A DNA stretch of 64,000 bases from an uncultured Gammaproteobacteria bacterium (GTDB taxonomy: Bacteria > Patescibacteriota > Patescibacteriia > UBA2591 > UBA6264): the NCBI GenBank assembly GCA_964596735.1, contig CAZQVF010000002.1, positions 18,321-82,320 on the forward strand, read 5' to 3'. Under the pieces are notes generated by a model. It saw only the letters and a program-made list of their open reading frames with translations, was not told the DNA's origin and searched no databases. A program made the position numbers and the translations under genes. Positions 9,588 to 62,498 of this stretch are shown here, one piece after another (within the stretch, counting starts at the first letter, position 1; every line of letters starts with the position of its first letter).

Positions 9588-9639
9588 GCTTATTTATACT
9601 GTTATTTAGCCTGTTTTTTGCTATAATAACATAATAAAT

Positions 9640-10029
9640 ATGGAAAAAAAATCATTTAAAATTTTACTTATTGAAGATGACCAGTTTATTCGCCGTATTT
9701 GTAAAAACGGCCTAGAACGAAGTGGTTTTAATGTAATAACAGCTGCGGAGGGGAAAGAAGGGATGAAAAAAGCAAAAGAACAAAATCCAGATCTAATTCT
9801 CTCTGACTTAGTCATGCCCCATAGAAATGGTTTTGAAACAATGGAACAAATAAAAAAAGATAAACAATTAAAAGATATTCCAATAATTATTCTTTCTAAT
9901 TTGGGTCAAGAATCAGATATTCAAAAAATAAAAGAGTTGGGAGCCGTCGACTATTTAATTAAGTCTGATTTTAAAATAAAAGAAGTGGTAGAGAAAATAA
10001 AATCCCATTTGGCTAAATTAGAAAAATAA
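9640..10029 (+). CDS. Stand-alone response-regulator receiver domain protein (CheY-like), paralog of 12865-13245
   Basis: Receiver signature: acidic pair EDD, phospho-acceptor in LILSDLVMP, conserved T/S and K (IIILSNLG ... YLIKS); 129 aa, no output domain. Confidence 0.85.
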   Translation: MEKKSFKILLIEDDQFIRRICKNGLERSGFNVITAAEGKEGMKKAKEQNPDLILSDLVMPHRNGFETMEQIKKDKQLKDIPIIILSNLGQESDIQKIKELGAVDYLIKSDFKIKEVVEKIKSHLAKLEK

Positions 10030-10044
10030 AAGGAGGAATAAAAT

Positions 10045-12423
10045 ATGTTTTTAAAATATTTTAAAAAAATAAAACTTAACCTAACAACTAAATTTGTTGT
10101 TTTGTTCTTGGCTATTTCTCTGGTTCCCTTGATTATTGCTGTTTATATCAGTTATGACAGTTCGCGAAAAGTTTTAGAAGAAGAAGCCGCTTATCAGCTT
10201 TATCAAATTTCTGATAATAAAGTCAATCAAATTGATAAATATTTTTCAGAAGCAAAAAAAGATGTCACTGCTTTAGCGCGCATGCCTGGTGTTATCGGTT
10301 CTGTGGAAAAATTTAATCAGGCTTTTCAAGAACATCAAGTAAATTCTTTAGAATATCTTGCCATTGATAAAGAATTAAGACCTGCTTTATTATATTTTCA
10401 AGAGGCATCTAAGTATGATGATCTCTTTTTAATTTCCTCTGAAGGAAATTTAACTTTTTCTACTAGTCAAAAACATGCTTTAGGAACAAATTATCTTACT
10501 GATTTAAAGGCCAATTCTGATTTAACACCCATTCTTAAAAGTACCATTGCTTTATTAGAAACAAAAATATCAACCTTTAAGCTGATTAAGGGCGGTAAGA
10601 TTAGAGCTTATATCACATCTCCTGTGTCTAATGAAGGAAAATTTATTGGGGTGATCGGAGTTCAAGTTAATAATGAAGGAATCTATAATCTCACTGAAGA
10701 TTATGCTGGTTTAGGAAAAACAGGAGAAATTATTTTAGTCGCCAGATTAGAAGATCAAATAATTTTTATTGCTCCATCAAGATATGACCCAGAAGGAGCA
10801 TTTAAAACAAATGTTGAATTAGGGGCTCATCAAGGGATTGCCCTTCAAAAGGCAGTGCAAAGAGAAAAAAGTTGGGGAATAACCACTGATTACAAAGGAG
10901 AAAAGGTTTTAGCTACTTGGCGCTATCTACCTAATTATCAATGGGGCTTGGTAGTAAAAATGAATGCCGATGAAATATTAAAAACAGCTAATGAGCTAAA
11001 AGACCGGTTAGTCGTTATTGGGACAGTACTCTTAATAATGATTGTTTTGATTACGGTTGTGATGGCTCGTTCTGTTTCCGGGCCAATTAAAAAATTAACT
11101 AAAGTAGCAGCGACAATTTCTAAGGGTAATCTTTTGGCTCGGGCAAGAATAAACACAAAAGATGAAATTGAAGAATTGGCTAATTCTTTTAATCAAATGA
11201 CTGACAATCTTTTAAAAACCCAGAGTAGATTAGAAGACAAAAGTGAACAATTAGCTAGAAATCTTGGGCAGATAGAAAGACAAAACAAAGAGCTGGAAGA
11301 AGAAAAGAATAAGGTTGGTCAGGAAAAAGATAAATTAAATACTATTCTTTATGGGATTGGTGATGGTGTCTTTGTTGTTGATCCAGATTACAAGATTATG
11401 ATTTTTAATCAAGAAGCAGAAGTTATTTCTGGGGTTACATCTAAGGAGGCTGTTGGCAAGAGATATGATCAGATTCTTAATTTTATTTCTGAAAGAAACG
11501 GAAAATCAAATGGTAGATTTGTTCGAGAAGCAATAAGCAGTGGGGAGATTAAAGAAACCAGTTTTGATACTGTTTTGGTTAAAAAAGGCAAGAAAAATAT
11601 TCCGGTTTCCGGAAGTGCCGCTCCCTTAAAAGATTCTGATGGTAATGTAATAAGTTGTGTGGTTGTTTTTCGTGATGTGTCCAAAGAAAGGGAAATTGAT
11701 CGGGCCAAAACTGAATTTGTTTCCCTGGCTTCTCATCAATTAAGAACACCCCTTTCTACTGTCAGCTGGTATGCAGAAATGCTTTTAGATGAAGACGTGG
11801 GGAAAATCAACAAAGACCAAGAAAAATATTTACAAGCGCTTTATGATGCTAATCACCGCATGGTGGAATTAGTCAATGCTCTTTTAAATGTTTCTCGGAT
11901 TGAATTAGGAACTTTTGCTATTGACCCTGAGCCGATTAAATTTCTTGAAATTGCTGATAGTGTTATAAAAGAACAAACTCCACAAATTAAAGAAAAAGGA
12001 TTAAAAATTGAAAAAAAATATGCTGTTGATTTGCCCATTATTAATGCTGACCCTCGACTTTTAAGAATTATTTTACAAAATCTGATTTCCAATGCTGTTA
12101 AATATACTCCGGAAAAGGGAAGTATTGTTATTGAAATTAGTAAAAAGGATTTAGATATTTTAGTTAAAGTAAAGGATACTGGTTATGGTATTCCCAAGAC
12201 TCAACAATCAAAAATATTTAATAAGCTGTTCCGGGCTGATAATATTTTGGCTAAAGATTGTGATGGCACTGGTCTTGGCCTTTATATTGTCAAGGCTGTG
12301 GTTGAGCAGTCAGGCGGCAAAATCTGGTTTGAATCTGAAGAAAATAAAGGAACCACTTTCTTTACCACTATTCCTTTAATAGGAATGAAAAAGAAAAAAG
12401 GAGTCAAAGTTTTAGCTAGTTAA
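10045..12423 (+). CDS. Sensor histidine kinase with a large (~280 aa) extracytoplasmic sensor domain (Cache-like), HAMP, PAS, HisKA and HATPase_c
   Basis: TM1 about aa 14-36 and TM2 about aa 318-338. H-box FVSLASHQLRTPL, N-box ISNAVKYTP, G-boxes DTGYGIP and GTGLGLYIVK. Confidence 0.85.
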   Translation: MFLKYFKKIKLNLTTKFVVLFLAISLVPLIIAVYISYDSSRKVLEEEAAYQLYQISDNKVNQIDKYFSEAKKDVTALARMPGVIGSVEKFNQAFQEHQVNSLEYLAIDKELRPALLYFQEASKYDDLFLISSEGNLTFSTSQKHALGTNYLTDLKANSDLTPILKSTIALLETKISTFKLIKGGKIRAYITSPVSNEGKFIGVIGVQVNNEGIYNLTEDYAGLGKTGEIILVARLEDQIIFIAPSRYDPEGAFKTNVELGAHQGIALQKAVQREKSWGITTDYKGEKVLATWRYLPNYQWGLVVKMNADEILKTANELKDRLVVIGTVLLIMIVLITVVMARSVSGPIKKLTKVAATISKGNLLARARINTKDEIEELANSFNQMTDNLLKTQSRLEDKSEQLARNLGQIERQNKELEEEKNKVGQEKDKLNTILYGIGDGVFVVDPDYKIMIFNQEAEVISGVTSKEAVGKRYDQILNFISERNGKSNGRFVREAISSGEIKETSFDTVLVKKGKKNIPVSGSAAPLKDSDGNVISCVVVFRDVSKEREIDRAKTEFVSLASHQLRTPLSTVSWYAEMLLDEDVGKINKDQEKYLQALYDANHRMVELVNALLNVSRIELGTFAIDPEPIKFLEIADSVIKEQTPQIKEKGLKIEKKYAVDLPIINADPRLLRIILQNLISNAVKYTPEKGSIVIEISKKDLDILVKVKDTGYGIPKTQQSKIFNKLFRADNILAKDCDGTGLGLYIVKAVVEQSGGKIWFESEENKGTTFFTTIPLIGMKKKKGVKVLAS

Positions 12424-12460
12424 TTGTATAAATAATAATGTAATTTAATTATATAAACAT

Positions 12461-12850
12461 ATGTCAACACAAAACAAAAAAGTCCTTATTGTTGAGGACG
12501 AAAAAGCTATGCGACAAGTTATTTTTGACAAATTCGAACGTGAAGGTTTCCAAACCTTTCAAGGAAAAGACGGAGAAGAAGGCTTAAAGATTGCTTTAAA
12601 AGAGCATCCTGATATTATTCTTTTAGACATTATCATGCCTCGAGTTGATGGTTTAAGTATGCTTAAAAAATTAAGAAAAGATAAGTGGGGAAAAAATGCG
12701 CAGGTGCTTCTTCTTACTAATTTAAATGATGCTGAGTATGTGGCCACGGCTATGGAAAGTGGAGTTTTTGATTTTTTAGTTAAAAGTGATTGGAAGCTTG
12801 ATGATTTGGTTGTAAGGGTCAAAGAAAAACTAGGAATTGTTCAAAAATAA
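12461..12850 (+). CDS. Stand-alone response-regulator receiver domain protein
   Basis: VLIVEDE ... ILLDIIMP ... LLLTNL ... FLVKS receiver pattern; 129 aa. Confidence 0.85.
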   Translation: MSTQNKKVLIVEDEKAMRQVIFDKFEREGFQTFQGKDGEEGLKIALKEHPDIILLDIIMPRVDGLSMLKKLRKDKWGKNAQVLLLTNLNDAEYVATAMESGVFDFLVKSDWKLDDLVVRVKEKLGIVQK

Positions 12851-12864
12851 TATAATTATTAAAT

Positions 12865-13245
12865 ATGGCTGAAGAAAAAAAAGTTAAAATTGCTTTAGTT
12901 GAGGATGAAAGGTTTTTATTAGGGGCGATGAGGGATAAACTGCAAAGAGAGGGCTTTGATGTTTATACAGCGACTAATGGTGAAATTGGATTGGAGGTAA
13001 TTAAGAAAGAAAAACCGGCTTTGATTTTACTAGATTTAATTATGCCGATAAAAAGTGGTTTTGATGTTTTAGAAGAATTGCAAAAAGATAGTGAATTAAA
13101 AAATATTCCTGTCATTATTCTTACTAATTTGGGTCAAGAATCAGATATTCAAAAAGGTAAAGAATTGGGAGCAGCAGACTATTTAATCAAAGCTGATTTT
13201 AAAATGAAAGAGGTTATTGCCAAGGTAAGGGAACATCTTAAATAA
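12865..13245 (+). CDS. Stand-alone response-regulator receiver domain protein, paralog of 9640-10029
   Basis: Receiver pattern. The C-terminal ~35 aa are nearly identical to the first receiver (NLGQESDIQK.KELGA.DYLIK.DFK.KEV), with ~85% identity over ~100 nt at the DNA level. Confidence 0.85.
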   Translation: MAEEKKVKIALVEDERFLLGAMRDKLQREGFDVYTATNGEIGLEVIKKEKPALILLDLIMPIKSGFDVLEELQKDSELKNIPVIILTNLGQESDIQKGKELGAADYLIKADFKMKEVIAKVREHLK

Positions 13246-22037: not shown

Positions 22038-22499
22038 ATGATTAGATCACGTAAAGGTTTTACTCTCATTGAAATTCTCATTGCCGTCGGGATTATTGCA
22101 ATTTTAGCCGCTATCGTTATTATTGCTATTAACCCAGCTCGTCAGTTTCAAAGAGCGAGAGATTCTCAACGATGGAGTGATGTTAACGCTATTCTTAATG
22201 GTGTTCACCAAAGAATGGTTGACAACAAAGGAAGTTTTGCTGAAGGCACCACCTGTGATGCCCTGCCAGCTACGGTCATGTCTATTACTAGTACAGCTGG
22301 AGCAAACAATGTTGATCTCTGTGATTGTTTGGTAACAACTTATTTAGCCGCTCTTCCTTTTGACCCTTCAACTTCTGGAGCAGGTTTTACTGATTGCAAT
22401 GGCTATACAACTGGTTATACTATTATGCAGGCCGCCACGGGTAGAATTACCGTTGCCGCTCCTGGAGATGAGTTAGATACGATTACAGTAACCCGGTAA
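22038..22499 (+). CDS. pilA: Type IV major pilin (PilA-like), with Cys residues for a C-terminal disulfide
   Basis: N-terminus MIRSRKGFTLIEILIAVGIIAILAAI. About 150 aa. Cys-containing C-terminal region and a strong terminator immediately downstream. Confidence 0.75.
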   Translation: MIRSRKGFTLIEILIAVGIIAILAAIVIIAINPARQFQRARDSQRWSDVNAILNGVHQRMVDNKGSFAEGTTCDALPATVMSITSTAGANNVDLCDCLVTTYLAALPFDPSTSGAGFTDCNGYTTGYTIMQAATGRITVAAPGDELDTITVTR

Positions 22500-25518: not shown

Positions 25519-26562
25519 TTGATATTTATGATGAATAAAATACACGATTTAGCTTCAAGGGTGACCAATGTGGTTGAGAAAAGGCAATGGCCCAAGGCTA
25601 GTGCTGGTCGAAAAATGATTTCTCAAATCCCTTTAATTATGTCTGAGCAGACAATAGGCGATGCTCAGGCTATTCTTTTTGAAAAACATGATCAAATTGA
25701 AACCATTAACTATTTCTATGTTATTGATGAAAACAAGAAATTTATTGGCGTTTTTTCAATTAAAGAGCTTTTCCGCCAAAATACTGAGAAAAAGGTTAAG
25801 GAATTCATGATTAAAACTGATTTAGTTAAGGTTGAACCTGAAACAGATCAAGAAAGAGTGGCTTATTTGGCTTTACACCGTAATTTAAAATCTATTCCTG
25901 TTGTTGATAAAGACAATACTTTACTTGGTATTGTTCCTAGTGATTATATTTTAAATATTTTAGAAAAAGAAATTAGTGAAGATTTACTCTATCTGGCTGG
26001 TGTTTATGAGCCAATTTCTCGTCTTGAATGGAAAGATCAGCTAACCTTTCCTTTTTTTATGGCCATTAAACATCGTTTGCCTTGGTTGTTAGTTGGTTTA
26101 ATTGGTGGTATATTAGTGGCTCGAATTATTGGTTTTTTTGAAGCTTCATTGCGACAGAACTTGGTCTTGGCCATGTTTATCCCCGTAATTGTTTATATGA
26201 GTAATGCCACTGGTAGTCAAACCCAGGCTATTTTTCTAAGGGATTTAGCCACCCATACAAAAATACCTTTTAGAAAATATTTTTTAAGGCAGTTATTAAC
26301 TTGTTTTTTCTTAGCCGTGTTTTGTAGTCTTTTACTTTTCTTAGTTATCGCTGTTGGTTGGACCACATTTTATTTAGCCTTTGTTTTGGGTTTCTCCATG
26401 TTAATGACTATTATTAGTGCTTCATTTTTTGCTTTGGCTATTCCTTATTTTTTAAACAAACTTAAATTAGATCCTGCCTTTGGTAGCGGTCCTTTTACAA
26501 CTATTATTCAAGATATTTTAAGTATTGTTATTTACTTTGGTATTGCTAATTGGCTATTATAA
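25519..26562 (+). CDS. mgtE: Magnesium transporter MgtE (CBS pair plus MgtE TM domain). The start is probably at MMNKIHD
   Basis: CBS-like region followed by 5 TM helices with an MgtE-like SNATGSQTQA segment. Confidence 0.75.
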   Translation: MIFMMNKIHDLASRVTNVVEKRQWPKASAGRKMISQIPLIMSEQTIGDAQAILFEKHDQIETINYFYVIDENKKFIGVFSIKELFRQNTEKKVKEFMIKTDLVKVEPETDQERVAYLALHRNLKSIPVVDKDNTLLGIVPSDYILNILEKEISEDLLYLAGVYEPISRLEWKDQLTFPFFMAIKHRLPWLLVGLIGGILVARIIGFFEASLRQNLVLAMFIPVIVYMSNATGSQTQAIFLRDLATHTKIPFRKYFLRQLLTCFFLAVFCSLLLFLVIAVGWTTFYLAFVLGFSMLMTIISASFFALAIPYFLNKLKLDPAFGSGPFTTIIQDILSIVIYFGIANWLL

Positions 26563-26609
26563 GAACCTTTCGCTATGCTCCAGAACCTTGAAATTAAATT
26601 TTAAAGAAT

Positions 26610-28334
26610 ATGGATAATAAAAAAGTATCTCAAATTCTTTATCAAACAGCTGATATTTTACAAATTAAAGACGCTAATCTTTTTCGCATTAATGCTTATC
26701 GTCGAGTCGGACAAACAGTTGAAAACTTGGCTGAAGACATTAATTTAATTGCTGAAAGAGGAGAGTTGGAAAAAATTCCCGGAATCGGAAAAGGAATTGC
26801 TCATTATATCCAAGATCTATTAGAAACAGGGACTTGTCATGGTTTTGAAGAATTAAAAAAACAAGTTCCTCTAACTGTTTTAGATTTATTAAATATTGAA
26901 GGCCTAGGGCCGAAAAAAGTTAAATTCCTTTTTCAAAAATTTGACATCAATTCTCTTTATAAATTACAAAGATTACTTAAATCACATAAACTCTTAGAAA
27001 TAGAAGGCTGGGGAGAAAAAACTGAAAAAAATCTTTTAAAATCAATTAATCTTTACAAACGTTATAAACAACGTTTTTTATTAGGTGAAATTTATCCTTT
27101 AGCCCAAGAAATCTTAGAAGAATTAAAACAGTCTGGACTAGTTAACCGAACTGAGGTTTGTGGTTCAATTCGGCGCTGGCGAGGAACAGTTGGTGATTTA
27201 GATATTTTAGCCACATCAAAAAAACCAGAAAAAGCCATTGAATTTTTCACCAAGCTTAAACATGTAAAAAGAATTTTGGCTAAAGGGTCAACCAAGGTTC
27301 AGGTGATTTTAGAGCAGGGGGTAGGGGCTGATTTGCGCGTGGTTGAGCCAAAAAGCTTTGGAGCCGCTGTTCATTATTTTACTGGCTCTAAGGCTCATAA
27401 TATTCGAGTGAGACGTTTAGGTATGCAAAAAAATCTCAGAATTAATGAATATGGGGTTTTTAAAAAATCAGGTAAGAAATTAATTAGAATTGGTGGAGCT
27501 TTTGAAAAAGATGTTTTTAAAGCAGTTAATTTGCCGTTGATTGCCCCTGAACTAAGAGAAGATCAAGGTGAGATAGAAGCAGGACAAAGTAAAAAACTAC
27601 CTCGTTTAATTTCCTTAAAAGATATTCGTGGTGATTGTCATCTACATAGTAATTGGTCTGACGGGTATAAAAGTATTTTAAAAATGGCTCAGGCCTCTAA
27701 AGAAATAGGATATGAATACATTGCCATTACTGATCATGCCACCCCCATGAGAGTGGCCAATGGGCTAAGAGCAAAAAGAATGCCTGGATATATTAAGGCA
27801 ATTAAAAATGCTGATAAAAAAATAAGGGGAATTAAAATTTTAGCCGGCATAGAAGTTGATATTAAAAAAGATGGAACCTTATTTTTATCAAATGAAATCT
27901 TAAAAAAACTAGATGTTGTTGTTGGGGCAACTCATAGTGCTCTGCGTATGCCCAAAAAAGAAATGACTCAAAGAATCATGAAAGCAATGGAAAATCCCTA
28001 TGTTCACATTATTGCTCATCCCTCTAATCGTTTAATTAATAAAAGAGAACCTTCACAAATAAATTTTAATCAGATTATAAAAAAGGCTAAGGAGACGAAA
28101 ACAGTTTTAGAAATAAATGCTTTTTACCGCCGGCTTGATCTTAACCCTAGTCAGGCTCGTTTGGCTAAACAAAATGGGGTAAAAATGATTATTTCAACAG
28201 ACGCTCATCATAATGATTATCTTGATGTTATGAAATTTGGCGTGGCTCAAGCTCGCAGAGGTTGGTTAGAAAAAAAAGATGTTGTTAACACCCTGCCTTT
28301 AAATGCGTTTTTAAAATCTTTGAAAAAGAAATAA
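26610..28334 (+). CDS. polX: DNA polymerase/3'-5' exonuclease PolX (Pol beta-like domain plus PHP domain)
   Basis: Pol X nucleotidyltransferase motif GSIRRWRGTVGDLDIL; C-terminal PHP motifs HLHSNWSDG, TDH, and His/Asp clusters. Confidence 0.85.
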   Translation: MDNKKVSQILYQTADILQIKDANLFRINAYRRVGQTVENLAEDINLIAERGELEKIPGIGKGIAHYIQDLLETGTCHGFEELKKQVPLTVLDLLNIEGLGPKKVKFLFQKFDINSLYKLQRLLKSHKLLEIEGWGEKTEKNLLKSINLYKRYKQRFLLGEIYPLAQEILEELKQSGLVNRTEVCGSIRRWRGTVGDLDILATSKKPEKAIEFFTKLKHVKRILAKGSTKVQVILEQGVGADLRVVEPKSFGAAVHYFTGSKAHNIRVRRLGMQKNLRINEYGVFKKSGKKLIRIGGAFEKDVFKAVNLPLIAPELREDQGEIEAGQSKKLPRLISLKDIRGDCHLHSNWSDGYKSILKMAQASKEIGYEYIAITDHATPMRVANGLRAKRMPGYIKAIKNADKKIRGIKILAGIEVDIKKDGTLFLSNEILKKLDVVVGATHSALRMPKKEMTQRIMKAMENPYVHIIAHPSNRLINKREPSQINFNQIIKKAKETKTVLEINAFYRRLDLNPSQARLAKQNGVKMIISTDAHHNDYLDVMKFGVAQARRGWLEKKDVVNTLPLNAFLKSLKKK

Positions 28335-31131: not shown

Positions 31132-32370
31132 TTATAACAGATAATCCTTAGGATTAACAGGAATACCATCTAATCTTACCTCAAAATGTAAATGTGGTCC
31201 AGTGGAGAAACTACCCGCCCCTGTCGTTCCTGGTAATCCGCCGGTTCGGCCAATAATACTGCCTCTTTTAATATATTCGTCTTCTTCAACAAAGATTTCA
31301 CTAACATGTCCATAAACAGTGGAAAAAGATTCATTATGAATGATCATGATATAGCTATAACCTAGGCCACCATGCTTTGCCCTGGCCACATAGCCAGAAG
31401 CCGGCGCTCTTATAGCTGTTCCCTGGGGGGCTCTTAAATCAATACCTGAATGCTCACCAATCCAATGGCGATAAGGATAGTCTGGATCATGAAATTCAGA
31501 GGTAATTCCTTCTAACGGGACTGGCCAGGAAAAGATAATAATCCCCTCTTTTTCCATTAACTCTGCTTTTTGTTCTTTTTCTTGGGCTATTTTTCTTCTG
31601 ACATCGCTTTCCAACTGAACTATTTCATTTTCAACTTCTTGTTTTTCCTTAACCACTTCTGCTAAAAGAGCTTGAAATTTCCATTCTGCTCCTTGGGTTT
31701 CTTCTAAAATAGTTTTCTTGGCTTGTTGCTCTGAAGCTAATTTTGCTTTTTTGTCTTTAAGTTCTGATTCTAAATCAATTAATTGTTGGAGTTGTAAACG
31801 TAGATCTTTTTCTTGTATTTCCAAGCCTTCTTTGATTAAATCCATTCTTTGTAAAGAACGAGCTAATTCTGACTGAACAGTGTTTAAATAGCGTAAATGA
31901 CTTAAAATATCTGAAATAGAATCATTGAGAAGAATTATTTCTAAATGATTTTTATGATCGTATTGATTAATGGTTTGTAAAAATTCTTTTAAATCTTGTT
32001 TTAATACTTCGATTTCTTGTTTTTTTTCTAAAACTCTTAATTGAATGTTCTTAATTGAAAGATTAGTTTTGGCGATTTGTTTTTCTTTTTCTTGGATTTC
32101 TGCCTCTCTTTCTAAAACTTGATTACTTAAAAGGTATATTTGATTTTTCAAAGTAACGGCTTCTTCTCTTTTAATTTCTATTTTCTCTTGATATATTTGT
32201 TTTTGTCCTTCTAGGTCTTTTATCTCTTGTTGCTGGGCTTCAATCTGTTTTTGCATGTCTTCAATTTCTTTTGAATAATCAATCGTAAGGCTGAGACTGG
32301 GTTTGACAAATAAAAAAAATGCTAAGAAGCAGACAAATAGTAAACTAATTTTATTATAATTAAAATACAT
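31132..32370 (-). CDS. Coiled-coil M23 peptidase (EnvC-like murein hydrolase activator / LytM-domain protein)
   Basis: Signal/TM, then a long Q/E/K-rich coiled coil, then a C-terminal M23 domain (HSGIDLRAP ... GHVSEI ... GPHLHFEV). Confidence 0.8.
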   Translation of the reverse strand: MYFNYNKISLLFVCFLAFFLFVKPSLSLTIDYSKEIEDMQKQIEAQQQEIKDLEGQKQIYQEKIEIKREEAVTLKNQIYLLSNQVLEREAEIQEKEKQIAKTNLSIKNIQLRVLEKKQEIEVLKQDLKEFLQTINQYDHKNHLEIILLNDSISDILSHLRYLNTVQSELARSLQRMDLIKEGLEIQEKDLRLQLQQLIDLESELKDKKAKLASEQQAKKTILEETQGAEWKFQALLAEVVKEKQEVENEIVQLESDVRRKIAQEKEQKAELMEKEGIIIFSWPVPLEGITSEFHDPDYPYRHWIGEHSGIDLRAPQGTAIRAPASGYVARAKHGGLGYSYIMIIHNESFSTVYGHVSEIFVEEDEYIKRGSIIGRTGGLPGTTGAGSFSTGPHLHFEVRLDGIPVNPKDYLL

Positions 32371-32414
32371 TAATTTATATACAATAAATATTTAATTTCA
32401 AGCTTTGCTTATAT

Positions 32415-41976: not shown

Positions 41977-43245
41977 TTATTTTGTTTTCCAGTGGTCCAA
42001 GGCTTGTTTTAGTTCAATATGGTTATGAGAATAAAACTTTAAAGGAATTCCTTTGGTGGCCGCTTCTACGGCTTGAACAGCGGCTCTGGCTCCGGCCCCA
42101 CTTCCTTGAGGATGTCCGTGCAAACCACCGCCAAAATTAATAACTAGGTTTGTTCCTAAAATTTCAACTAATTTATAGGCTAAGCCGGGATGAAGTCCGC
42201 CTGAAGCAATGGGCAAAACAGGTTTAAGCTTGCCCCAGTTTTCTCTTAGTTTATTAAATCCTCGCCAGTCTTCTTTTAATAATTCATTTACTTGAACAAC
42301 TTCTTTTTCTTCTCCTTCCATTTTTCCCACCACTGTGCCTGTATGAAACTGATCAATACCAGCTAAGCGAGCTAAATTGGCTACGACTAAAAAGGAAATG
42401 CCATGTTTTTTATTTCTAGTAAAAGCAGAATGACCAGCTCTATGCCCGTGAATAATCAAGCCCAAGTCTTGGTTTCTCAAAGACTGGACTCCGGCCCAAC
42501 CAGTAGTAACAATATCAACCATAACACATCTGCCCCCTAATCTTTTAACTAATTTTGCTCTTTGCAGCATTAGCTCTGTTGGCGCGGTCACATTAAATAC
42601 ATAAATCTTTTTTTGTTTTGTTTCTTTTTCTACTTGTTTTTTAAGGGCTAAAACCTTTTTGACCCTGTCTTCAAATTTATTAAAACTCAGGTCGGTTAAA
42701 TTTTCATCATCTTTGATTAAATCAACTCCGTTTTTAAATATTTCTGCGGCTAATTTAGCGTTTTGAGTTGAAGTTAAGCCTATTTTGGGTTTTATAATAC
42801 AGCCAACCAAGGGCCTTCTTTTTATTCCGGTAATCCTTCTTATTCCATTAATCCCCCATTTTGGTCCTGGATATTGGTTAATATATTTTTCAGGAAATTC
42901 AATGTCTTGCAAACGTAAATTCTTAACTAATTTCATGCTAAAAATATTTCCCCCAATGCTAGAAAGAAGCTGAGGAATACTATTTGGTTCAAACAAGGCT
43001 AAGGGGTAAGCAATTTTAAAAATACCTGTTCTGGTGTTAACTGAAAAAACCTTTGCCGCTAATTTATTAAAGACTTTGTCTGATAAGGTTTTTACTTTTG
43101 TCCAGGTGCCAATTGAAGATTCTTCAGCTACTTTTTGGGCTAATTTATTTAAAGATAACTTAGATTCCCCATAATAAGTGACGATAATCTCTTCTTGGGG
43201 TTTTGGCTTATATTTTAGCCTTAAATAGGTTGATTTTTTTTTCAT
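41977..43245 (-). CDS. rbcL: Ribulose-1,5-bisphosphate carboxylase/oxygenase large subunit, form II/III-like (archaeal/CPR type)
   Basis: Carbamylated Lys region GVDLIKDDENL, GCIIKPKIGLT, IIHGHRAGHSAF, FGGGLHGHPQGSGAGARA. 422 aa. No small subunit gene adjacent. Confidence 0.9.
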   Translation of the reverse strand: MKKKSTYLRLKYKPKPQEEIIVTYYGESKLSLNKLAQKVAEESSIGTWTKVKTLSDKVFNKLAAKVFSVNTRTGIFKIAYPLALFEPNSIPQLLSSIGGNIFSMKLVKNLRLQDIEFPEKYINQYPGPKWGINGIRRITGIKRRPLVGCIIKPKIGLTSTQNAKLAAEIFKNGVDLIKDDENLTDLSFNKFEDRVKKVLALKKQVEKETKQKKIYVFNVTAPTELMLQRAKLVKRLGGRCVMVDIVTTGWAGVQSLRNQDLGLIIHGHRAGHSAFTRNKKHGISFLVVANLARLAGIDQFHTGTVVGKMEGEEKEVVQVNELLKEDWRGFNKLRENWGKLKPVLPIASGGLHPGLAYKLVEILGTNLVINFGGGLHGHPQGSGAGARAAVQAVEAATKGIPLKFYSHNHIELKQALDHWKTK

Positions 43246-45235: not shown

Positions 45236-46000
45236 TTATTTTTTTACTTTTTCAAAGTAACGTAAACCATCACTATCTTTTCCGGCTTCAACAAAGTCAT
45301 CAAAAATCACCGGGACAATTGTTTGAGCTTTTTCCAGTAAATCACCAATTACTTTGCGGATTTCCCAATGAGCTGGTTTACCTGTTCTCATAGCAAAAAT
45401 ATGACGCCATTCTCTAAAATTAGCTGAAATTATTATTTGTGATTTAATGCCAATGGGAAGGGCTTGGCGGGCATCCTGAGGCAGCCAGCCAGCTTTTCTT
45501 AAGCCTCGATAAAATCTTTCATATTCAGTAAACATTTCTTTGATAGACATTTTTCTACCATCATCTAGTTCTACCTTTTTATTTTCATCTCGATGCGGAG
45601 GAACCACGCAATTAAGTTGAAATTTATCTAAATCAGGGCCTTGGCCTTTTTTAGCATAATCCACATAACGGGTTGATTCTTGAGAAACCCCGGTTAAACG
45701 GTGTCTTACTTGTTCATGAGTAAAGCCACGGGAAACATTGTTAAACTGAACAACCATGCTGCTGTGCTCCAGCACGCTTTCGTGTCCAAGTTTAATAATC
45801 ATTTTAGCAAATTTTTTAGCCGTCTCTAAAGTAACTTGTTCTTTTTCAGATTGATAACAAGTCCGTCCGGCTTTTTCAATTCTTAATAATTGATTATGTA
45901 ATTCTTTCTCTGGGGTTAAAATGATGAAACTTCCTGCGTCTTTAAGAGTTTTCATTTTATTTTCTTTATCCTTATTAAAATCTTGGCTTAACAATATCAA
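45236..46000 (-). CDS. thyX: FAD-dependent thymidylate synthase ThyX (possible internal start MKTLKDAG)
   Basis: ThyX motif RHRLTGVSQES (RHRx7S) plus the conserved His and Glu region. Confidence 0.85.
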   Translation of the reverse strand: MILLSQDFNKDKENKMKTLKDAGSFIILTPEKELHNQLLRIEKAGRTCYQSEKEQVTLETAKKFAKMIIKLGHESVLEHSSMVVQFNNVSRGFTHEQVRHRLTGVSQESTRYVDYAKKGQGPDLDKFQLNCVVPPHRDENKKVELDDGRKMSIKEMFTEYERFYRGLRKAGWLPQDARQALPIGIKSQIIISANFREWRHIFAMRTGKPAHWEIRKVIGDLLEKAQTIVPVIFDDFVEAGKDSDGLRYFEKVKK

Positions 46001-46023: not shown

Positions 46024-46055
46024 ACAAAAAAAGGCGAGATTTCTCTCGCCTTTTT
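46024..46055. terminator. Bidirectional terminator (A8 GGCGAGA TTTC TCTCGCC T5)
   Basis: Perfect 7-bp GC-rich stem flanked by A-run and T-run; terminates the minus gene 46059-46556. Confidence 0.6.
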
Positions 46056-46058
46056 GTT

Positions 46059-46556
46059 CTACCCGCCATTCAAGAGCTCACCTACTCTTTCCCCTAGGAA
46101 TCCTCGTCCACTACATTCACAACGGATCAAAGGAATGTTTACTTTAGCAACCATTCGTTCTTTTTCTGGCCATTCACAGGAACAGGCAACAATAGTCACT
46201 AAGGCATTACTTTCTTGTTTTAACATTCTCGCCATATCAATAGCTGAACGAAAAGCATATAAACCAGAGTAGACAATGTATTCTTTAACATCTTTGACAG
46301 GAACCTTACCATTGTAGTAGTCATGGCCTAGGTCGTGCATTACTGATCCGGCTCGCTCATAATCAGTATCTCCTTTTCCTGTATCACAACCTCTGCCATT
46401 ATCATTAGCGCAGACAAAGACTCTCGCTTTAGCAGATTCATGCCAGCCACTGTTATAACCCCTTACTGGGTTATAACTAATGATGACGAAAATCGGCCTT
46501 TTCTTTTTCATGATTACCTCCTTTTCTCTTTTTTGAAACCCTGTTTTAGAATTCAC
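46059..46556 (-). CDS. Hypothetical Cys-rich protein (8 Cys: CANDNGRGC, ACSCEW, RCECSG). The start is probably at MKKKRPIFVI
   Basis: Strong SD (GGAGGTAATC) before the ATG. GC content is visibly higher than the window average. No family recognised. Confidence 0.5.
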   Translation of the reverse strand: MNSKTGFQKREKEVIMKKKRPIFVIISYNPVRGYNSGWHESAKARVFVCANDNGRGCDTGKGDTDYERAGSVMHDLGHDYYNGKVPVKDVKEYIVYSGLYAFRSAIDMARMLKQESNALVTIVACSCEWPEKERMVAKVNIPLIRCECSGRGFLGERVGELLNGG

Positions 46557-46620
46557 AAAACATTTATGAACTCTAGGACAGGGGCAAGCAGAGGAAAGTC
46601 CTTTGCTTGCCTCTTCCTCC

Positions 46621-47742
46621 TTATTTCCCGCACCTCCTTCCTAAGAAACCTATTCCAGCAATGATAATGCAGGATTTTTCCAAGCCAAGCTCAATAATCT
46701 GTTTTATTAGAAAATCATATTCTTGCTTGTTTTTTTCCTGCTTAGAATGTTTTACTGGAATATTCTCTTTTCCTTTGTAGTCCTCAGTCGTTGCCAAGAT
46801 AAGGGCTTGTTGTCTTAATGCCTGAACAAAGGCTGGCAAATCTACTTTTAACTTGTGTTTCCCTAAGATCAAGTTAAAATTTATCTCGCCTGAGTCTTGA
46901 CCCAGAAGAACTTGGTAAAGTTCTTGCAAAACAGGATCATCATCCTTAATGGGCTCAAGCATTTTGAACAACCGCTGTTCATACATTTCCCTTTCTTCAT
47001 CTAAGTCAATTTGCAACAAAGGGGTTGCTTGTTCTGGGGAAAGAATGTCAATTAAAGGAGCGTAAAAGTCATAAGTTGCTTCTTTAACCAGTAAAAAAGC
47101 ATTTGTGCTGGGGAGGGGTAAGACAAACTCGCTATCAATGAGATCACTCACATCTACTAAGTCGTCTCTTTTAACGTCTTGGGCCCTTGTCATCTTAAAC
47201 TGTTTTAGACTTTGCTTATTAGTGCCAAATCTAACAATTTCAATGGCTTCAGCTTCGGATTCTCCTTGTTCTTCATCTTTTTCACTAATTCCCCAAAAGG
47301 CTTGCAGAGAAAGGTGTAAGGGGCTCAAGATCATTATTATCTCTCCAAAGACCCTTGTTTTACCAATCTCTTTATGCTCTTTAATGCATTGGCATTCTCC
47401 TCTTAAACACCGCGAAACATTTGCCGTTCTTTTGCCCGCCATATGAACCACTAAATCATTGTAAACATTTCTCAGTGTCTCTTTTCCAGCATCAGAAATG
47501 GAAATAATTTCCATTGTCGCCTGGTTTTTTCTAACAAAAGCGGCGATATCTTTTCCTTCTTTACCTTTTGAACTAAGCATCAGGTCTAAAAGAAGAACTT
47601 CTGGCTTTATCTGTTTAATTAAAGATAAAGCCTGTTTTACGCTTGTAACTGTCTTTGGTTGAACAGCTTCAAACCCTTGCTTGGCCAGATCTTTAACCAT
47701 CCAGTCCAAGTTTCTGTCGTCAATGATCAATATCTTCATCAT
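46621..47742 (-). CDS. Receiver-domain protein: an N-terminal CheY-like REC domain fused to an uncharacterised ~260-aa Cys-containing domain
   Basis: N-terminus MMKILIIDDRNLD ... EVLLLDLML ... has the REC pattern. The remainder (CLRGECQC ... SCIIIAGIGFLGRRCGK) is unrecognised. SD AGGAGGCAATG. Confidence 0.55.
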   Translation of the reverse strand: MMKILIIDDRNLDWMVKDLAKQGFEAVQPKTVTSVKQALSLIKQIKPEVLLLDLMLSSKGKEGKDIAAFVRKNQATMEIISISDAGKETLRNVYNDLVVHMAGKRTANVSRCLRGECQCIKEHKEIGKTRVFGEIIMILSPLHLSLQAFWGISEKDEEQGESEAEAIEIVRFGTNKQSLKQFKMTRAQDVKRDDLVDVSDLIDSEFVLPLPSTNAFLLVKEATYDFYAPLIDILSPEQATPLLQIDLDEEREMYEQRLFKMLEPIKDDDPVLQELYQVLLGQDSGEINFNLILGKHKLKVDLPAFVQALRQQALILATTEDYKGKENIPVKHSKQEKNKQEYDFLIKQIIELGLEKSCIIIAGIGFLGRRCGK

Positions 47743-48029
47743 TGCCTCCTTTTCTTTTTTTTATGAACAAATAAAAAAACTGATCTCTTGTAATAGAGAG
47801 ACCAGCTTATTTTAGGGTTTGTGCAGATTTATGGCTTAAAAAAGCCAAAAGCAAAACAAAATCAGTCTCTCTATCAGAGAATCAGATTTGTAATCTTGAT
47901 GAGTTTTTCGAAACGCTTGACCAATCATTGTTTTGCAAATTAAAATGTCTATCTGTTAATATAGACGAATCAAATACAAAACTGTCACACTGCTTGGATA
48001 TTTTATTAAAATATGGTAAGATAGTTTAT

Positions 48030-48971
48030 ATGGCTAAAAAACAAAAGAAAATCGTTTTTTTTGGCACGCCTGAGTTTGCTAAAACTATATTAGAAGAATT
48101 AATAAAAACAGAATTTAAGCCTGTTATGGTGATTACTGCCCCTGATAAGCCTGTGGGAAGAAAACAGATTCTCTCCCCTTCTTTGGTTAAAAAATTGGCT
48201 CAAAAACATCAGATCCCTTTGTTTCAGCCAAAAACCTTAAAAGATTCTGATATAGAAGAAAAACTATTGGCTTTAGGATCTGACTTATTTATTATTGCTG
48301 CCTATGGCCTGATTTTACCGCAAAATATTTTAAACATTCCTAAATTTGGCTCTATTAATATTCATCCTTCTCTTTTACCTAAATATCGGGGGGCCTCCCC
48401 TATTCAGGCAACTATTTTAGCTAATGATCAAGAATCAGGAACAACTATTATGTTAATGGATGAAAAAATAGATCATGGACCAATTATTGCTTTGAAAAAA
48501 ATCAAAATTGAAAATGAAAACAGTGTTGATTTGTCTAAAAAATTAGCTGAATTAGGAGCTGATATGTTAATCACAATTTTACCTAAATGGTTTGGAAAAG
48601 AAATCAAGCCAATCCCTCAAGATCATCAAAAAGCTACTTTTACCCGTCTGATTAAAAAATTGCATGGAAAAATTATTTGGGGAAAATCAGCTCAACAAAT
48701 AGAACAAATGTTTAGAGCTTATCAACCCTGGCCAGGTATTTATACCATCTTTGATAATTTAACTTTAAAAATTTTGGAGATTGAAGTTTTAAAAATTAAT
48801 CATCAACCTACTCCAGGAAAAGTATTTGTCACCAAGGATAAGGAATTAGCCGTTGCTTGTGAAAAAAATGCTTTAATTTTAAAACAAGTTCAGTTACAAG
48901 GGAAAAAACCAACTTTTGGAAAATCATTTTTAAATGGACATCAACAAATAATTAATACTGTTTTGTCTTAA
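48030..48971 (+). CDS. fmt: Methionyl-tRNA formyltransferase (start taken at MAKKQKK)
   Basis: N-terminal formyltransferase motifs (IVFFGTPEFA, NIHPSLLPKYRGASPIQ) plus a C-terminal Fmt domain. Confidence 0.85.
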   Translation: MAKKQKKIVFFGTPEFAKTILEELIKTEFKPVMVITAPDKPVGRKQILSPSLVKKLAQKHQIPLFQPKTLKDSDIEEKLLALGSDLFIIAAYGLILPQNILNIPKFGSINIHPSLLPKYRGASPIQATILANDQESGTTIMLMDEKIDHGPIIALKKIKIENENSVDLSKKLAELGADMLITILPKWFGKEIKPIPQDHQKATFTRLIKKLHGKIIWGKSAQQIEQMFRAYQPWPGIYTIFDNLTLKILEIEVLKINHQPTPGKVFVTKDKELAVACEKNALILKQVQLQGKKPTFGKSFLNGHQQIINTVLS

Positions 48972-50238: not shown

Positions 50239-50565
50239 CTATTCTAATTCTTCTAACTCTTTGATGATTTCCTGGGGAATCGGGATTTTTTGTTTAGGAC
50301 TAATCCCTGGATAACGCCAAGCAGTGATAATTCTCTTTTTTTTATCAATTGGCTGATACATTAACCAGATCTCTGTCGGTCTTTTTTTTGTCCCCACTGT
50401 CTGCATTAAAGCAATTGTCCCCTCAGCAATCCCCTGCTGTTGTCTTTCTGGATTATTTAATAAACGCTTTAACCGGGCCTGAGAAAGTCCATATTGTCTC
50501 ATTTTAGAGACAACGTGCCGCGTCCAAGTGAGCTGCTCATCATCCTGGGGAACCTTAAAATACAT
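50239..50565 (-). CDS. Hypothetical 108-aa protein (distant resemblance to small toxin-like DUF4258/BrnT-type folds, very tentative)
   Basis: ORF abutting RNase J. The segment KKRIITAWR resembles the C-terminal strand of those families. Confidence 0.35.
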   Translation of the reverse strand: MYFKVPQDDEQLTWTRHVVSKMRQYGLSQARLKRLLNNPERQQQGIAEGTIALMQTVGTKKRPTEIWLMYQPIDKKKRIITAWRYPGISPKQKIPIPQEIIKELEELE

Positions 50566-52484: not shown

Positions 52485-53252
52485 TTATCTTATTTCGTAG
52501 CTTAAATTAGCAGTCATGGAGATTTTTGTTTCTCCGGCTTCAATTTCTGTTGATTCCATATCTATTGACTGTTCCATCATTCCTCCCATACCATAAGCCC
52601 GGGGAGAAGGATAATATCCTCCTGAACTAGAAACAGAAACATTAATTAATTTTCCCAAACTTAAACCAGAGACCTTGGCAATGGCCTTGGCTTTTTCTTT
52701 AGCCTTGGCAATGGCTTTGTCTCTTGCTTCTGCTTCAGCCGCCTCTTCATCTTCTAAAACAAAGCTGAGGCTGTTGATTTGATTTGCTCCGCTAGCTGTG
52801 GCTTGATCAATAATTTCGTTTAATTTGTCAAAGTCCTTTGTCTTAATTGAGATGCTGACACTGGCTTGATAGCCAACCAAGTTTCGTTTCCCACTCTTTC
52901 TTTCCCACTCATAGCGCGGGGTAATACTATAACGAGTAGTTTTAATCTTTTCTTCTTTTACCCCTAGTTCTTTTAAGTTTTTAATGATTTCACTATTAAC
53001 CTCATTGACTTCTTTTTGAGCCTGACTAACTGTTTTGGCTTCTTTTTCCACACCCAAACTAATCTGAGCCGTGTCTGGTTTAACATATACCTCTGCTTGA
53101 GCACTCACCTGAAAAGGAGCGTCTTTAGGAATAGTGACTGAGTGGGTAGACCAGGTTAAGGTGCTGGTAAACTTAGCCGCAATAATCACTCCTAAACAAA
53201 TAATAGCGACGACGATAGTGATTTTAGTGATGAATTCTTTTAATTCTTTCAT
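52485..53252 (-). CDS. SIMPL-domain protein (DUF541, periplasmic/secreted oxidative-stress-associated family)
   Basis: N-terminal TM anchor followed by the SIMPL pattern (VSAQAEVYVKPDTAQISLGV ... RYEWE ... GYQASVSISI). Confidence 0.7.
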   Translation of the reverse strand: MKELKEFITKITIVVAIICLGVIIAAKFTSTLTWSTHSVTIPKDAPFQVSAQAEVYVKPDTAQISLGVEKEAKTVSQAQKEVNEVNSEIIKNLKELGVKEEKIKTTRYSITPRYEWERKSGKRNLVGYQASVSISIKTKDFDKLNEIIDQATASGANQINSLSFVLEDEEAAEAEARDKAIAKAKEKAKAIAKVSGLSLGKLINVSVSSSGGYYPSPRAYGMGGMMEQSIDMESTEIEAGETKISMTANLSYEIR

Positions 53253-56889: not shown

Positions 56890-57057
56890 AATTTTAATTA
56901 AAAATAGTCTGTGGCCACAGACTAAAAAATACTAAATAAACACTGATGTCTGGGCAGGAAATTAAGTGTTTTTAAACACACCCGCTGTCTGTGACACTTA
57001 TAATTTAGTATATATTAATATACTTTATTCGTCAATTTATTTTATCCACAGATTTGC
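56890..57057 (-). promoter_or_regulatory. Structured 5' leader of the rplJ-rplL operon (candidate L10 autoregulatory leader) with a perfect 9-bp palindrome AGTCTGTGG/CCACAGACT
   Basis: 168-nt untranslated region with several hairpins immediately upstream of rplJ. Confidence 0.35.
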
Positions 57058-61598: not shown

Positions 61599-61673
61599 AT
61601 GATTAACTATAATTAAAATACCTTAATTTCTATAGAATAAATATTTAATTTCAAGGTTCTACAAAGCAGGTTC

Positions 61674-62498
61674 TTATTTAATTTCGTCAATCGGAACCTC
61701 AATAATCATTTTTTGTTTTTCTTTTTCCTCCATTATTTCAACCAGCACTGTTTGTTTTAAAATGCGCCAATCAACTACTTTACCCTTTCCTTTTTTAGTC
61801 TTAACCTTTTCACCTAAGGCAGGTAGCTTTTCTTTTAAATCTTTATACATTTCATTTTCAAAAGCTAAACAACATTTAAGTCTTCCACAAATTCCAGATA
61901 AACGTTCTGGGCCGCGTTGAGAAAGCTGCTGATCAAACATCATTTCAGTGGTCACATGACCTAATTTTTTTAAAAAAGCTTGGCAACAAAGTGAGCGACC
62001 GCAGGGGCCAGCGTCTCCGGCTAAACCAGTTTCTTGACGAGCTCCTACTTGGTGCATCCTGATTGACTTATGGAACTCCTGAACTAGGTCTTTAACCAAA
62101 AGGCGAAAATCTATCCTGCTAGGAGCGGTAAAGGCAAAAATGATTTTACTTCCATCAAAACTAAAATGAGCATCGATAATTTTCATGGACAGCTTTCTTT
62201 TTTTGACTAACTGCTCACATTTTTTAAGAATTTCTTTTTTATGCTTATTTCTTTCCTTTAATTTTTCAAGATCATGAGTATTAGCTTTTCTAAGGATAAA
62301 ATTTTTCCGTTGTTGATCGTCTTCTTCTGATTTTTCTTCAATTTTAATAACCTTCCCTAAATCTGTCCCTAAGTCTGTTTTAATGATTAAATGATCATTA
62401 ACTTTAAATTGATTTTTTTCAACCAATTCTCCCCCTCGTACCTGCATTATAGAATAAGGGGCGTCCCAAAGAGCTAATTGAACAAAAACTATAACCAT
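61674..62498 (-). CDS. PSP1 C-terminal domain protein (RicT/YaaT-like)
   Basis: Cys motif GPCGRSLCC ... CGRLKCC. Confidence 0.75.
   Translation of the reverse strand: MVIVFVQLALWDAPYSIMQVRGGELVEKNQFKVNDHLIIKTDLGTDLGKVIKIEEKSEEDDQQRKNFILRKANTHDLEKLKERNKHKKEILKKCEQLVKKRKLSMKIIDAHFSFDGSKIIFAFTAPSRIDFRLLVKDLVQEFHKSIRMHQVGARQETGLAGDAGPCGRSLCCQAFLKKLGHVTTEMMFDQQLSQRGPERLSGICGRLKCCLAFENEMYKDLKEKLPALGEKVKTKKGKGKVVDWRILKQTVLVEIMEEKEKQKMIIEVPIDEIK

Follow-up and report, generated by a model that had tools for sequence, protein, structure and literature searches.

According to our analysis, two minus-strand genes in the 64,000-nt stretch of DNA studied here (the window) form a self-contained operon that has a leader and an intergenic spacer, both structured, and a terminator of its own. 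Its neighbors are the housekeeping genes fmt and thyX. The first gene (gene A; 46621-47742, 373 aa) appears to combine a divergent receiver domain with an acidic C-terminal domain, referred to below as the X domain, and the second (gene B) encodes a small Cys-rich protein. Response regulators are well understood as switches, and for many lineage-specific outputs the switched target is unclear. Gene A is best read as an orphan, non-DNA-binding response regulator that would be co-expressed with gene B. For the explanation as a whole, an orphan response regulator (receiver plus X domain) accompanied by gene B in a self-contained operon, we estimate a probability of roughly 0.45. The features of the operon are listed in Table 1.

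Table 1. Features of the two-gene operon, in window positions.
Feature	Position	Strand	Remark
Operon 5' leader with promoter region, ~290 nt, conserved	47743..48029	-	gene A to divergent fmt
Leader hairpin resembling a terminator, with a U-run behind it	47777..47808	-	terminator scan
Gene A residues 1-105, putative divergent receiver (REC) domain	47428..47742	-	
Gene A residues 106-134, linker with CLRGECQC (C112, C117, C119)	47341..47427	-	
Gene A residues 135-373 and stop codon, acidic ~240-aa X domain	46621..47340	-	
Structured spacer, gene A to gene B	46512..46620	-	
Gene B, most likely 150 aa, Cys-rich predicted alpha/beta protein, second unnamed family	46059..46511	-	
Intrinsic terminator closing the operon	46028..46055	-	

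An earlier note on this DNA had described two minus-strand open reading frames with strong ribosome-binding sites, and both were found where it had placed them, preceded by AAAGGAGGCAATGATG (gene A) and AAGGAGGTAATCATG (gene B). The bidirectional terminator that it saw as one boundary of the pair was also recovered as a GC-rich hairpin of 12 pairs (-23.2 kcal/mol, z = -6.5) that runs into the U-tract TTGTTTTATT; the element is symmetric, its hairpin being flanked by an A-run and a T-run on opposite sides, and is kept in L019 and L022. Beyond the terminator, a good promoter-like site for thyX is present at 46019-45991. The spacer between the two genes is structured as well: two hairpins (about 46583-46611 and 46540-46582; -39.5 kcal/mol, z = -4.9) precede the ribosome-binding site of gene B. 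Sequence identity between the spacer and its counterparts in the sister genomes is 86-93%, and one of its pairs shows a compensatory change from C-G to U-A in the relatives. The idea of the spacer hairpin being a repeated element was rejected, as it occurs in a single copy in the window.

The leader aligns over its full length with those of L019, L020, L022, and L023 (mean column identity 89%), and its proximal 185 nt are 77-82% identical, with a synonymous divergence of 0.27-0.48 in the genes. A 148-nt leader fold has z = -2.9, and a consensus fold built from three sequences has two positions at which both partners differ and still pair. The terminator-like hairpin inside the leader can also pair with the upstream segment ATAGAGAGAC. 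A 30-codon ORF (47835-47927) is open in three genomes, but the amino acids of its N-terminal half vary freely; judged by eye, this candidate leader peptide was dropped as probably non-coding. Searches of the leader and spacer against Rfam returned nothing meaningful, and the region upstream of gene B in the more distant relative L006 has no homology to the window.

Across three related genomes the operon is kept together as one unit. The co-occurrence of the pair elsewhere, raised in the earlier note, is seen in L019/L020 and L022/L023, where gene A adjoins gene B and is accompanied by the same leader, spacer, and terminator. The unit is unbroken even in L019, in which it and fmt have changed order. 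There the fmt block and the block with the cassette have traded places, and 65 nt are duplicated at the junction; mobility of the cassette was rejected as an explanation of its position in favor of a local swap of two adjacent blocks.

Past about residue 105 of gene A, no family was recognized in Pfam or NCBIfam, in agreement with the unrecognized output domain that had been noticed behind the receiver. The matches in these two libraries end at ~residue 92, and none of the DNA-binding outputs of the OmpR, NarL, NtrC, or LytTR classes was found. The CLRGECQC cluster and the C-terminal SCIIIAGIGFLGRRCGK reported earlier are both present in gene A. The cluster is conserved in the two close orthologues only and is missing from every distant homologue; the linker that carries it has a dN/dS of 0.22-0.39, above both flanking domains, and an AlphaFold2 (AF2) pLDDT below 50. 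The X domain itself has a dN/dS of 0.16-0.20 and 42 invariant columns in an alignment of 8-10 sequences. Its motifs (PLHLSLQAFWG, FLLVxEAxxDFYAPL, LRExxxILA(N/T)T, YKGK, HxK, and IEKxxxxIxG) are all present in gene A, and the orthologues of the window protein match the X-domain profile at E = 1e-78 to 1e-81. The family, defined here as P0003-P0025, is extremely small: the profile search retrieved just 19 proteins, corresponding to about 20 clusters among 5.8 billion, and the domain is present in only one of 185,579 GTDB species genomes. It had no matches in Pfam or among PDB sequences, and its AF2 model is unreliable, with pLDDT below 50 across much of the domain.

In distant genomes, a different N-terminal alpha/beta region precedes the X domain. 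Both a gene B-like nature (hhalign probability 0.4%) and a receiver nature (hhalign 0.2-3.8%, Pfam negative) were rejected for this region. In all five distinct cluster types retrieved, the X-domain gene directly follows that of an unannotated protein of 453-1422 aa (context scored in L001-L004, L013, L015, and L017). The surrounding genes encode an amino-acid transporter and an amino-acid-catabolic enzyme, joined in three of the five types by the matching aminoacyl-tRNA synthetase (LysRS with Lys/Arg decarboxylase, SerRS with serine ammonia-lyase, TyrRS with tyrosine decarboxylase); receiver proteins and radical SAM enzymes are also encoded in these clusters, one of which belongs to a WOR-3 MAG. 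L001, L004, and L013 have large upstream proteins that are mutual homologues. That of L015 has a weak GHKL match (HATPase_c_5, E = 1e-3; 19.4 bits, under the cut-off of 22), and H-box-like (DSFAHNIAAH) and N-box-like (ENxxRNIKW) motifs were noticed by eye in the large proteins of three other clusters; Pfam and PDB profile searches with these proteins were otherwise blank. One sub-threshold match and motifs read by eye suggest that the large proteins are possibly kinase-like. Neither the amino-acid genes in the window, where the neighbors are fmt and thyX, nor a gene B homologue in the distant X-domain clusters was found, and our literature search yielded no description of such clusters.

The possibly kinase-like upstream proteins, together with the amino-acid clusters, are the reason why the X domain is best read as a signaling transducer or output module; a role as DNA binder is not favored because of its pI of 4.8 and the lack of any match to a DNA-binding family. 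In the lineage of the window, it is best read as having been rewired onto a canonical receiver.

Concerning gene B, the description of a Cys-rich 165-aa partner from an unrecognized family holds for the richness in Cys and for the unnamed family, but not for the length, which is most likely 150 aa. The gene starts with the ATG at 46511, with AAGGAGG 7 nt upstream, and the orthologues begin at the same position; the 165-aa form corresponds to an upstream GTG start. Six Cys were counted (C34, C42, C110, C112, C131, and C133), instead of the eight reported. An exhaustive search with a profile founded on the window protein gave 180 representatives at E <= 1e-3, and in 37 sequences of this family Y13, Y81, G83, C110, C112, C133, and G135 are invariant and K117 is nearly so; a fourth Cys is common beside the three invariant ones. 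Gene B carries the complete family signature (Y13, Y81-x-G83, C110-x-C112, K117, C133-G-G135), and its CxC...C-G-G part matched no library family or known Cys motif. No close homologue of gene B was found in the 185,579 GTDB species genomes. Neither gene A nor gene B had a match above the curated cut-offs of Pfam, NCBIfam, PHROGs, and PADLOC, or any match among PDB sequences, which supports the view that neither protein is a housekeeping one.

The AF2 model of gene B is of the alpha/beta type (pLDDT 77, pTM 0.74), and the protein, which is under purifying selection (dN/dS 0.26-0.31), is predicted to be small and flavodoxin-like. The model places the residues conserved in the family (CxC, C-G-G, two Tyr, and one Lys) where the predicted parallel strands have their C-terminal ends, which is the usual site of a metal, Fe-S cluster, or cofactor in folds of this kind; the Cys would be clustered there. 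Gene B is probably a metal- or cofactor-binding partner, and with three invariant Cys a metal or Fe-S site would be plausible. Two other assignments were rejected: hhalign comparison with receivers was negative, and a cobalamin-binding-like nature, suggested by sub-threshold HpnJ matches in 3 of 60 members, was not recovered when eight members, long fusions included, were rescanned. A weak link to receivers comes from a few members of the family with a receiver-like N-terminal domain; P0059 and P0089 are two such fusions (E = 5e-4 and 5e-3 in Pfam, under the cut-off).

The earlier note had combined these properties into a horizontally acquired, redox- or metal-responsive island, in which the Cys clusters sense and the receiver relays. 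We consider this unlikely, despite several observations that speak for it. The GC content of gene A (38.1%) and gene B (41.5%) is above that of 60 window ORFs (33.9 +/- 3.3%; z = +1.3 and +2.3), as is their GC3 (0.364 and 0.338 vs 0.259 +/- 0.048; z = +2.2 and +1.6), and the GC of the pair exceeds that of its flanks in all three genomes, the two sister genomes included. A GC-richer island is visible relative to the window mean, but the difference is modest (1.3-2.3 sigma in GC), and other, native-looking window genes equal or exceed the pair in GC or GC3 (22038-22499, 50239-50565, 52485-53252, and others). Contigs with a GC content of 42-50% encode gene B homologues that are 51-53% identical, which would be compatible with transfer, and the patchy spread of both families among the GTDB genomes points the same way. 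However, horizontal acquisition would draw on a GC excess on the order of 1-2 sigma that is shared by two sisters, and the borders have no adjoining integrase or transposase ORF and no direct repeats; no tRNA was found in the window, and the block swap in L019 is no evidence for mobility of the pair itself. Regarding redox or metal sensing, the three invariant Cys and the common fourth one in gene B are in its favor, but the argument drawn from the Cys of gene A (C112/117/119, C358, C371) is not supported, since these are lineage-specific and are not conserved in the X-domain family. In addition, a receiver accepts phosphoryl groups, which would place gene A downstream of a sensor rather than make it the sensor.

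Another possibility is that the two genes are merely co-transcribed, gene B functioning with thyX or fmt, for instance as a small redox or cofactor carrier, and gene A being an unrelated upstream insertion. The order of the genes gives some weight to this scenario: the window, L022, and L006 all have thyX behind gene B, and in L006 a TPR protein takes the place of gene A; fmt is the other neighbor, and wider relatives of gene B in higher-GC genomes have no receiver or X domain within 10 kb. We nevertheless find it improbable, as a strong terminator stands between gene B and thyX, which also has its own promoter-like site, fmt and a gene for a 213-aa protein intervene between them in L019, and distant homologues of gene B do not adjoin thyX. 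Selection for co-expression is further indicated by the spacer that lies between the two genes, which is better conserved than synonymous sites and has a compensatory change. The partnership of the two genes is lineage-specific, since the distant X-domain clusters have no gene B and gene B is found without gene A; it could consist of co-expression only.

The receiver of gene A calls for a similar weighing, because its N-terminal domain might be a pseudo-receiver that is no longer phosphorylated, with gene A as a phosphorylation-independent scaffold or enzyme. The receiver was described as "clear", and this needs qualification: the five catalytic residues are intact, but the PF00072 score of 26.0 bits (E = 1.1e-5) is under the gathering score of 30.2. 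The match covers positions 1-84 of 111, about three quarters of the profile, and the unmatched last quarter comprises alpha4-beta5-alpha5; the response-regulator models of NCBIfam match residues 1-92 only. The loop after D53 is shortened and without the usual Pro in the hhalign alignment, and the N-terminal regions of the other X-domain proteins are not detectably receivers. Nor was a kinase found adjoining the pair. The only candidate in the window, and the nearest kinase to the pair, is a dCache-HAMP-PAS kinase at 10045-12423, 34 kb away; it already has three single-domain receivers alongside, and its pairing with gene A would be a guess.

Against this, the IIDD and LLLDLML motifs noticed earlier are both present, and D8, D9, D53, S83 (D+30), and K104 (D+51) can be read from the sequence at canonical spacing and are all kept in the two orthologues, P0001 and P0002. 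With a dN/dS of 0.15-0.22, the receiver is no less constrained by purifying selection than the X domain. The hhalign comparison with the three receiver proteins of the window itself gave a probability of 91.6% (E = 8e-7), with D8-D9 and D53 aligned to their equivalents in these bona fide receivers. As to the fold as such, residues 1-90 of the AF2 model form alternating strands and helices at pLDDT of about 67-72, and Foldseek matches in the PDB are almost all receiver-domain proteins, but weak (best E = 0.027). In our opinion, given the conserved residues and the purifying selection, a domain that has lost phosphorylation is not probable; with D8/D9, D53, S83, and K104 in place, the receiver should still accept phosphorylation.

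That the pair is the cargo of a phage or of an anti-phage defense system, as its small, self-contained format with two rare proteins and the position of the gene B fusion P0059 near an integrase and a MazE-like gene might suggest, is very improbable, given that PADLOC was blank except for the receiver part (E = 2e-4), that PHROGs matched gene B not at all and its family in 2 of 60 members (to different families, E about 5e-4), that neither family occurs in 2.9 million viral contigs, and that the neighbors are housekeeping genes.

For the orphan response regulator that we prefer, the following mechanism can be proposed. A non-adjacent kinase would phosphorylate D53 of gene A, and phosphorylation would switch the X domain, which would then act through protein contacts or an enzymatic activity. 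Gene B would be the co-expressed partner or the target, and the leader hairpin may add transcriptional attenuation. Unclassified output domains of response regulators are not rare, and our claim is therefore a modest one. Its interest lies in a receiver joined to a domain that is seen in only about twenty sequence clusters, and in a second unnamed family (~180 clusters) with a conserved three-cysteine site that is brought up along with it. In a very small genome of the CPR type with few regulators, a conserved and separately regulated pair likely controls something important, and the two-gene format offers a tractable biochemical entry to both families.

A bolder reading, which we put forward tentatively and hold to be rather doubtful, is that the X domain and the large proteins preceding it constitute an undescribed pathway governing modules of transporter, tRNA synthetase, and catabolic enzyme. 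A canonical receiver would then have taken over the X domain in the CPR lineage, and the domain would have become coupled to gene B, a new Cys3 cofactor- or metal-binding class that would itself come recurrently under receiver control. If this is true, two new signaling-domain families are present in the window in their simplest form, as just two genes.

Among known systems, PorX (REC-PglZ) and RssB (REC with a PP2C-like adaptor) are response regulators with non-DNA-binding outputs. Gene A resembles them in its N-terminal receiver with an acidic pocket, a phospho-acceptor Asp, and a Ser/Thr plus Lys switch, as well as in its apparently non-DNA-binding output, and chains of PorX and RssB are among its Foldseek matches. 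It differs from both in that its output matches no named family, its receiver is sub-threshold, and no cognate kinase is adjacent. Lineage-specific output domains of response regulators have been catalogued in censuses of two-component systems, e.g. in archaea (PMC5847659). Like these, gene A has a receiver fused to a domain of narrow lineage whose function is unassigned, whereas the X domain is far rarer, with about 20 clusters in 5.8 billion; outside this lineage, it has no detectable fusion to a receiver and follows a large, possibly kinase-like protein.

The distant X-domain clusters recall the tyramine cluster of enterococci, tyrS-tdcA-tyrP-nhaC2 (PMC3315439, PMC4932888), in the combination of an aminoacyl-tRNA synthetase with a decarboxylase or deaminase of the same amino acid and a transporter. 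Unlike the tyramine cluster, they additionally contain the large protein, the X-domain protein, receivers, and radical SAM enzymes, and the operon in the window has none of the metabolic genes. The best PDB folds for gene B are generic (Rab GTPases, CheY), and it differs from them in having TM scores of <= 0.48, no P-loop, and no acidic pocket of receivers. Its closest likeness is to small flavodoxin-like or Rossmann-like proteins, with which it shares a predicted three-layer alpha/beta fold and conserved residues at the strand ends.

The two minus-strand ORFs described in the earlier note were recovered from the same place. Gene A, a 373-aa protein, is preceded by AAAGGAGG; its adjoining partner, gene B, starts with the ATG at 46511, and AAGGAGG lies 7 nt in front of this codon. 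The 165-aa form of gene B proposed initially, which began at an upstream GTG, is too long, because the orthologues are 150 aa and start at this ATG; six cysteines were counted in gene B, not eight, and five in gene A. The hairpin taken as a terminator is convincing (z = -6.5), and the A-B spacer is structured, with two hairpins (z = -4.9). The description of the pair as GC-richer held in direction, but the rise is only modest: 38.1% for gene A and 41.5% for gene B vs 33.9 +/- 3.3% for 60 window ORFs, with GC3 z-scores of +2.2 and +1.6, respectively. Horizontal transfer of the pair is possible but unproven. The window, at 33% GC, has the look of a small genome of the CPR type; no tRNA or tmRNA genes were found in the entire 64 kb by ARAGORN. 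JGI metagenome contigs as long as 266-289 kb carry the same locus. An AT-rich intergenic motif (TTTAATTTCAAGGTTCT…AGGTTCTTAT), repeated in the window and in sister contig L022 (440-567 and 4863-4950), could be a lineage-specific promoter or REP-like element.

Features of the window, by position
Feature	Position	Strand	Remarks
Two-component cluster	9640-13245	plus	single-domain receiver, histidine kinase (10045-12423), two single-domain receivers
AT-rich motif	26548-26620, 32354-32405, 61608-61679		
Form III-like RuBisCO	41977-43245		surroundings of A-B pair
IF-2B-family protein			surroundings of A-B pair
thyX	45236-46000		surroundings of A-B pair
Terminator hairpin	46028-46055		
Gene B	46059-46511	minus	
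Gene A	46621-47742	minus	
Leader of gene A	47743-48029	minus	~290 nt
Leader hairpin with U-run	47808-47777	minus	
ORF in leader	47927-47835	minus	30 codons
fmt	near 48030 (true start)		surroundings of A-B pair
RNase J			surroundings of A-B pair
108-aa ORF	50239-50565	minus	highest GC3 in window (0.404, above A-B pair); weak match to DUF4258 (toxin-like)
Ribosomal protein L10 leader	56890-57012	minus	upstream of L10/L12 genes; Rfam RF00557, 48.3 bits, above gathering score

The pair is also carried by two sister genomes, with protein identities of 90 and 82% (gene A) or 85 and 79% (gene B) and with dN/dS values of 0.18-0.19 and 0.26-0.31, respectively; both genes are real and form one unit. Compared with a synonymous divergence of 0.27-0.48, the identity of the A-B spacer (86-93%) and of the proximal 185 nt of the gene A leader (77-82%) indicates that both non-coding parts are constrained, and the spacer contains one compensatory pair. 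The leader can be aligned along its full length in all relatives and ends with a terminator-like hairpin and a U-run. This hairpin has an alternative pairing, local or with a complementary segment upstream, and two of its pairs are altered on both sides with the pairing kept. A small ORF in the leader remains open, with poor amino-acid conservation. The leader, which had no match in Rfam, might act as an attenuator or give rise to a small RNA. At the sister locus L019, a dot-plot-type comparison placed the operon block on the opposite side of fmt, two adjacent blocks being swapped with duplication of a 65-nt junction (L019 401-465 and 3467-3531 vs window 47995-48059); an extra 213-aa repeat-rich protein is inserted before thyX. 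The operon block came through this swap intact; mobility of the block does not follow from this.

The N-terminus of gene A reads as a divergent receiver, probably still functional. The Pfam receiver model matched residues 4-90 (E = 1.1e-5) at 26.0 bits, below the curated cut-off of 30.2, and NCBIfam response-regulator models matched this part only. Comparison with the three single-domain receivers of the window by hhalign gave a probability of 91.6%, and Foldseek matches to a low-confidence gene A model were almost all receiver-domain proteins. Residues D8/D9, D53, S83, and K104 have canonical spacing and are conserved in orthologues.

The C-terminus of gene A (X domain) had no matches in Pfam, NCBIfam, PADLOC, or PDB sequences. 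Among 5.8 billion clusters, nine proteins were found in the first search and nineteen with a profile built on the ~240 residues in common; the domain occurs in one of 185,579 GTDB species genomes, a WOR-3 MAG, and in no viral contigs. Its 42 invariant columns, among which polar residues (H, S, Q, E, D, Y, R, T, K) are frequent, suggest a defined active or binding site, and its acidity (pI 4.8) argues against DNA binding. The AF2 model, built on ten sequences, is unreliable in this part.

Gene B had five relatives in a word-indexed search and 180 representatives at E <= 1e-3 in an exhaustive profile search; none of them matched a Pfam, NCBIfam, or PHROG family meaningfully or had a relative in the PDB. 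In 37 sequences Y13, Y81, G83, C110, C112, C133, and G135 are invariant, K117 is nearly so, and C131 is common. In a reasonable alpha/beta AF2 model (pLDDT 77), the conserved residues all lie at the C-terminal ends of strands, so that they probably mark one site along a single edge of the sheet. Foldseek gave only generic matches, to Rab GTPases and CheY (TM <= 0.48). In four members of the family, ~125 aa are added at the N-terminus; this extension is receiver-like, below threshold, in two.

Contigs of 42-50% GC hold gene B homologues with 51-53% identity, and neither a receiver nor an X domain was found within 10 kb of them. In the more distant relative L006, a 66%-identical homologue is flanked by a TPR protein and thyX, and gene A does not adjoin it. 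At L005 (710-2483) and L025 (about 7000-10000), both of 42-46% GC, homologues are located beside long stretches free of code-11 ORFs and many small zinc-ribbon-like proteins; an Rfam scan of L005 gave no match. At L024 (10568-11668), from a genome of 49% GC, the gene after a 53%-identical homologue encodes a 366-aa protein that has a radical-SAM motif (CxxxCxxC) and is rich in Cys at its C-terminus, which hints that some relatives accompany radical SAM enzymes.

Gene B may be a metal-, Fe-S cluster-, or cofactor-binding protein, and the redox- or metal-responsive module envisaged in the earlier note fits this protein only loosely. It does not fit gene A, whose cysteines highlighted there (CLRGECQC and two at the C-terminus) are limited to three close orthologues. 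No partner kinase adjoins the pair; the one histidine kinase in the window (792 aa, dCache-HAMP-PAS-HisKA-HATPase) is 34 kb away. Speculatively, this kinase would feed gene A, which would act on or with gene B.

Overall, our analysis gives good support to reading gene A as an orphan response regulator whose output domain is very rare and of a non-DNA-binding kind, and to its co-expression, from a structured transcription unit of its own, with a small three-cysteine alpha/beta protein that belongs to a second unnamed family. The response regulator is of a familiar type, its output domain is novel, and the partner is uncharacterised.

Five distinct cluster types were retrieved for distant X-domain homologues. 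In all five, a homologue of ~420 aa lies directly downstream of an unannotated protein of 453-1422 aa; three of these large proteins are mutually homologous. The 453-aa protein had a weak GHKL match (E = 1e-3, below cut-off), and H-box-like (DSFAHNIAAH) and N-box-like (ENxxRNIKW) motifs were read by eye in the large proteins. Since Pfam and PDB profile searches otherwise gave no matches, we only infer that they are kinase-like. The receiver fusion in gene A and this fixed place behind a large, possibly kinase-like protein point to the X domain as a signalling module. No receiver was detectable in the N-terminal parts of the distant homologues, nor are these parts gene B-like; the clusters of the distant homologues contain no gene B relative.

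The clusters also contain an amino-acid transporter and receiver proteins, together with matched pairs of LysRS and a Lys/Arg-type decarboxylase, SerRS and serine ammonia-lyase, or TyrRS and tyrosine decarboxylase; two others have a tyrosine-decarboxylase-like or asparaginase-like enzyme without an adjacent synthetase. These loci (L001, 12080-16304; L004, 11544-15797; L015, 9666-13413; L013; L017), which belong to other bacteria (one to a WOR-3 MAG), also hold radical SAM enzymes alongside the large unannotated protein (930-1420 aa), and their catabolic enzymes have N-terminal extensions of 200-400 aa. The finding would gain in significance should the X domain turn out to form, with the large upstream proteins, a new amino-acid-linked signalling pathway. 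The clusters resemble the enterococcal tyrS-tdcA-tyrP cluster, in comparison to which the signalling layer is an addition (PMC3315439, PMC4932888).
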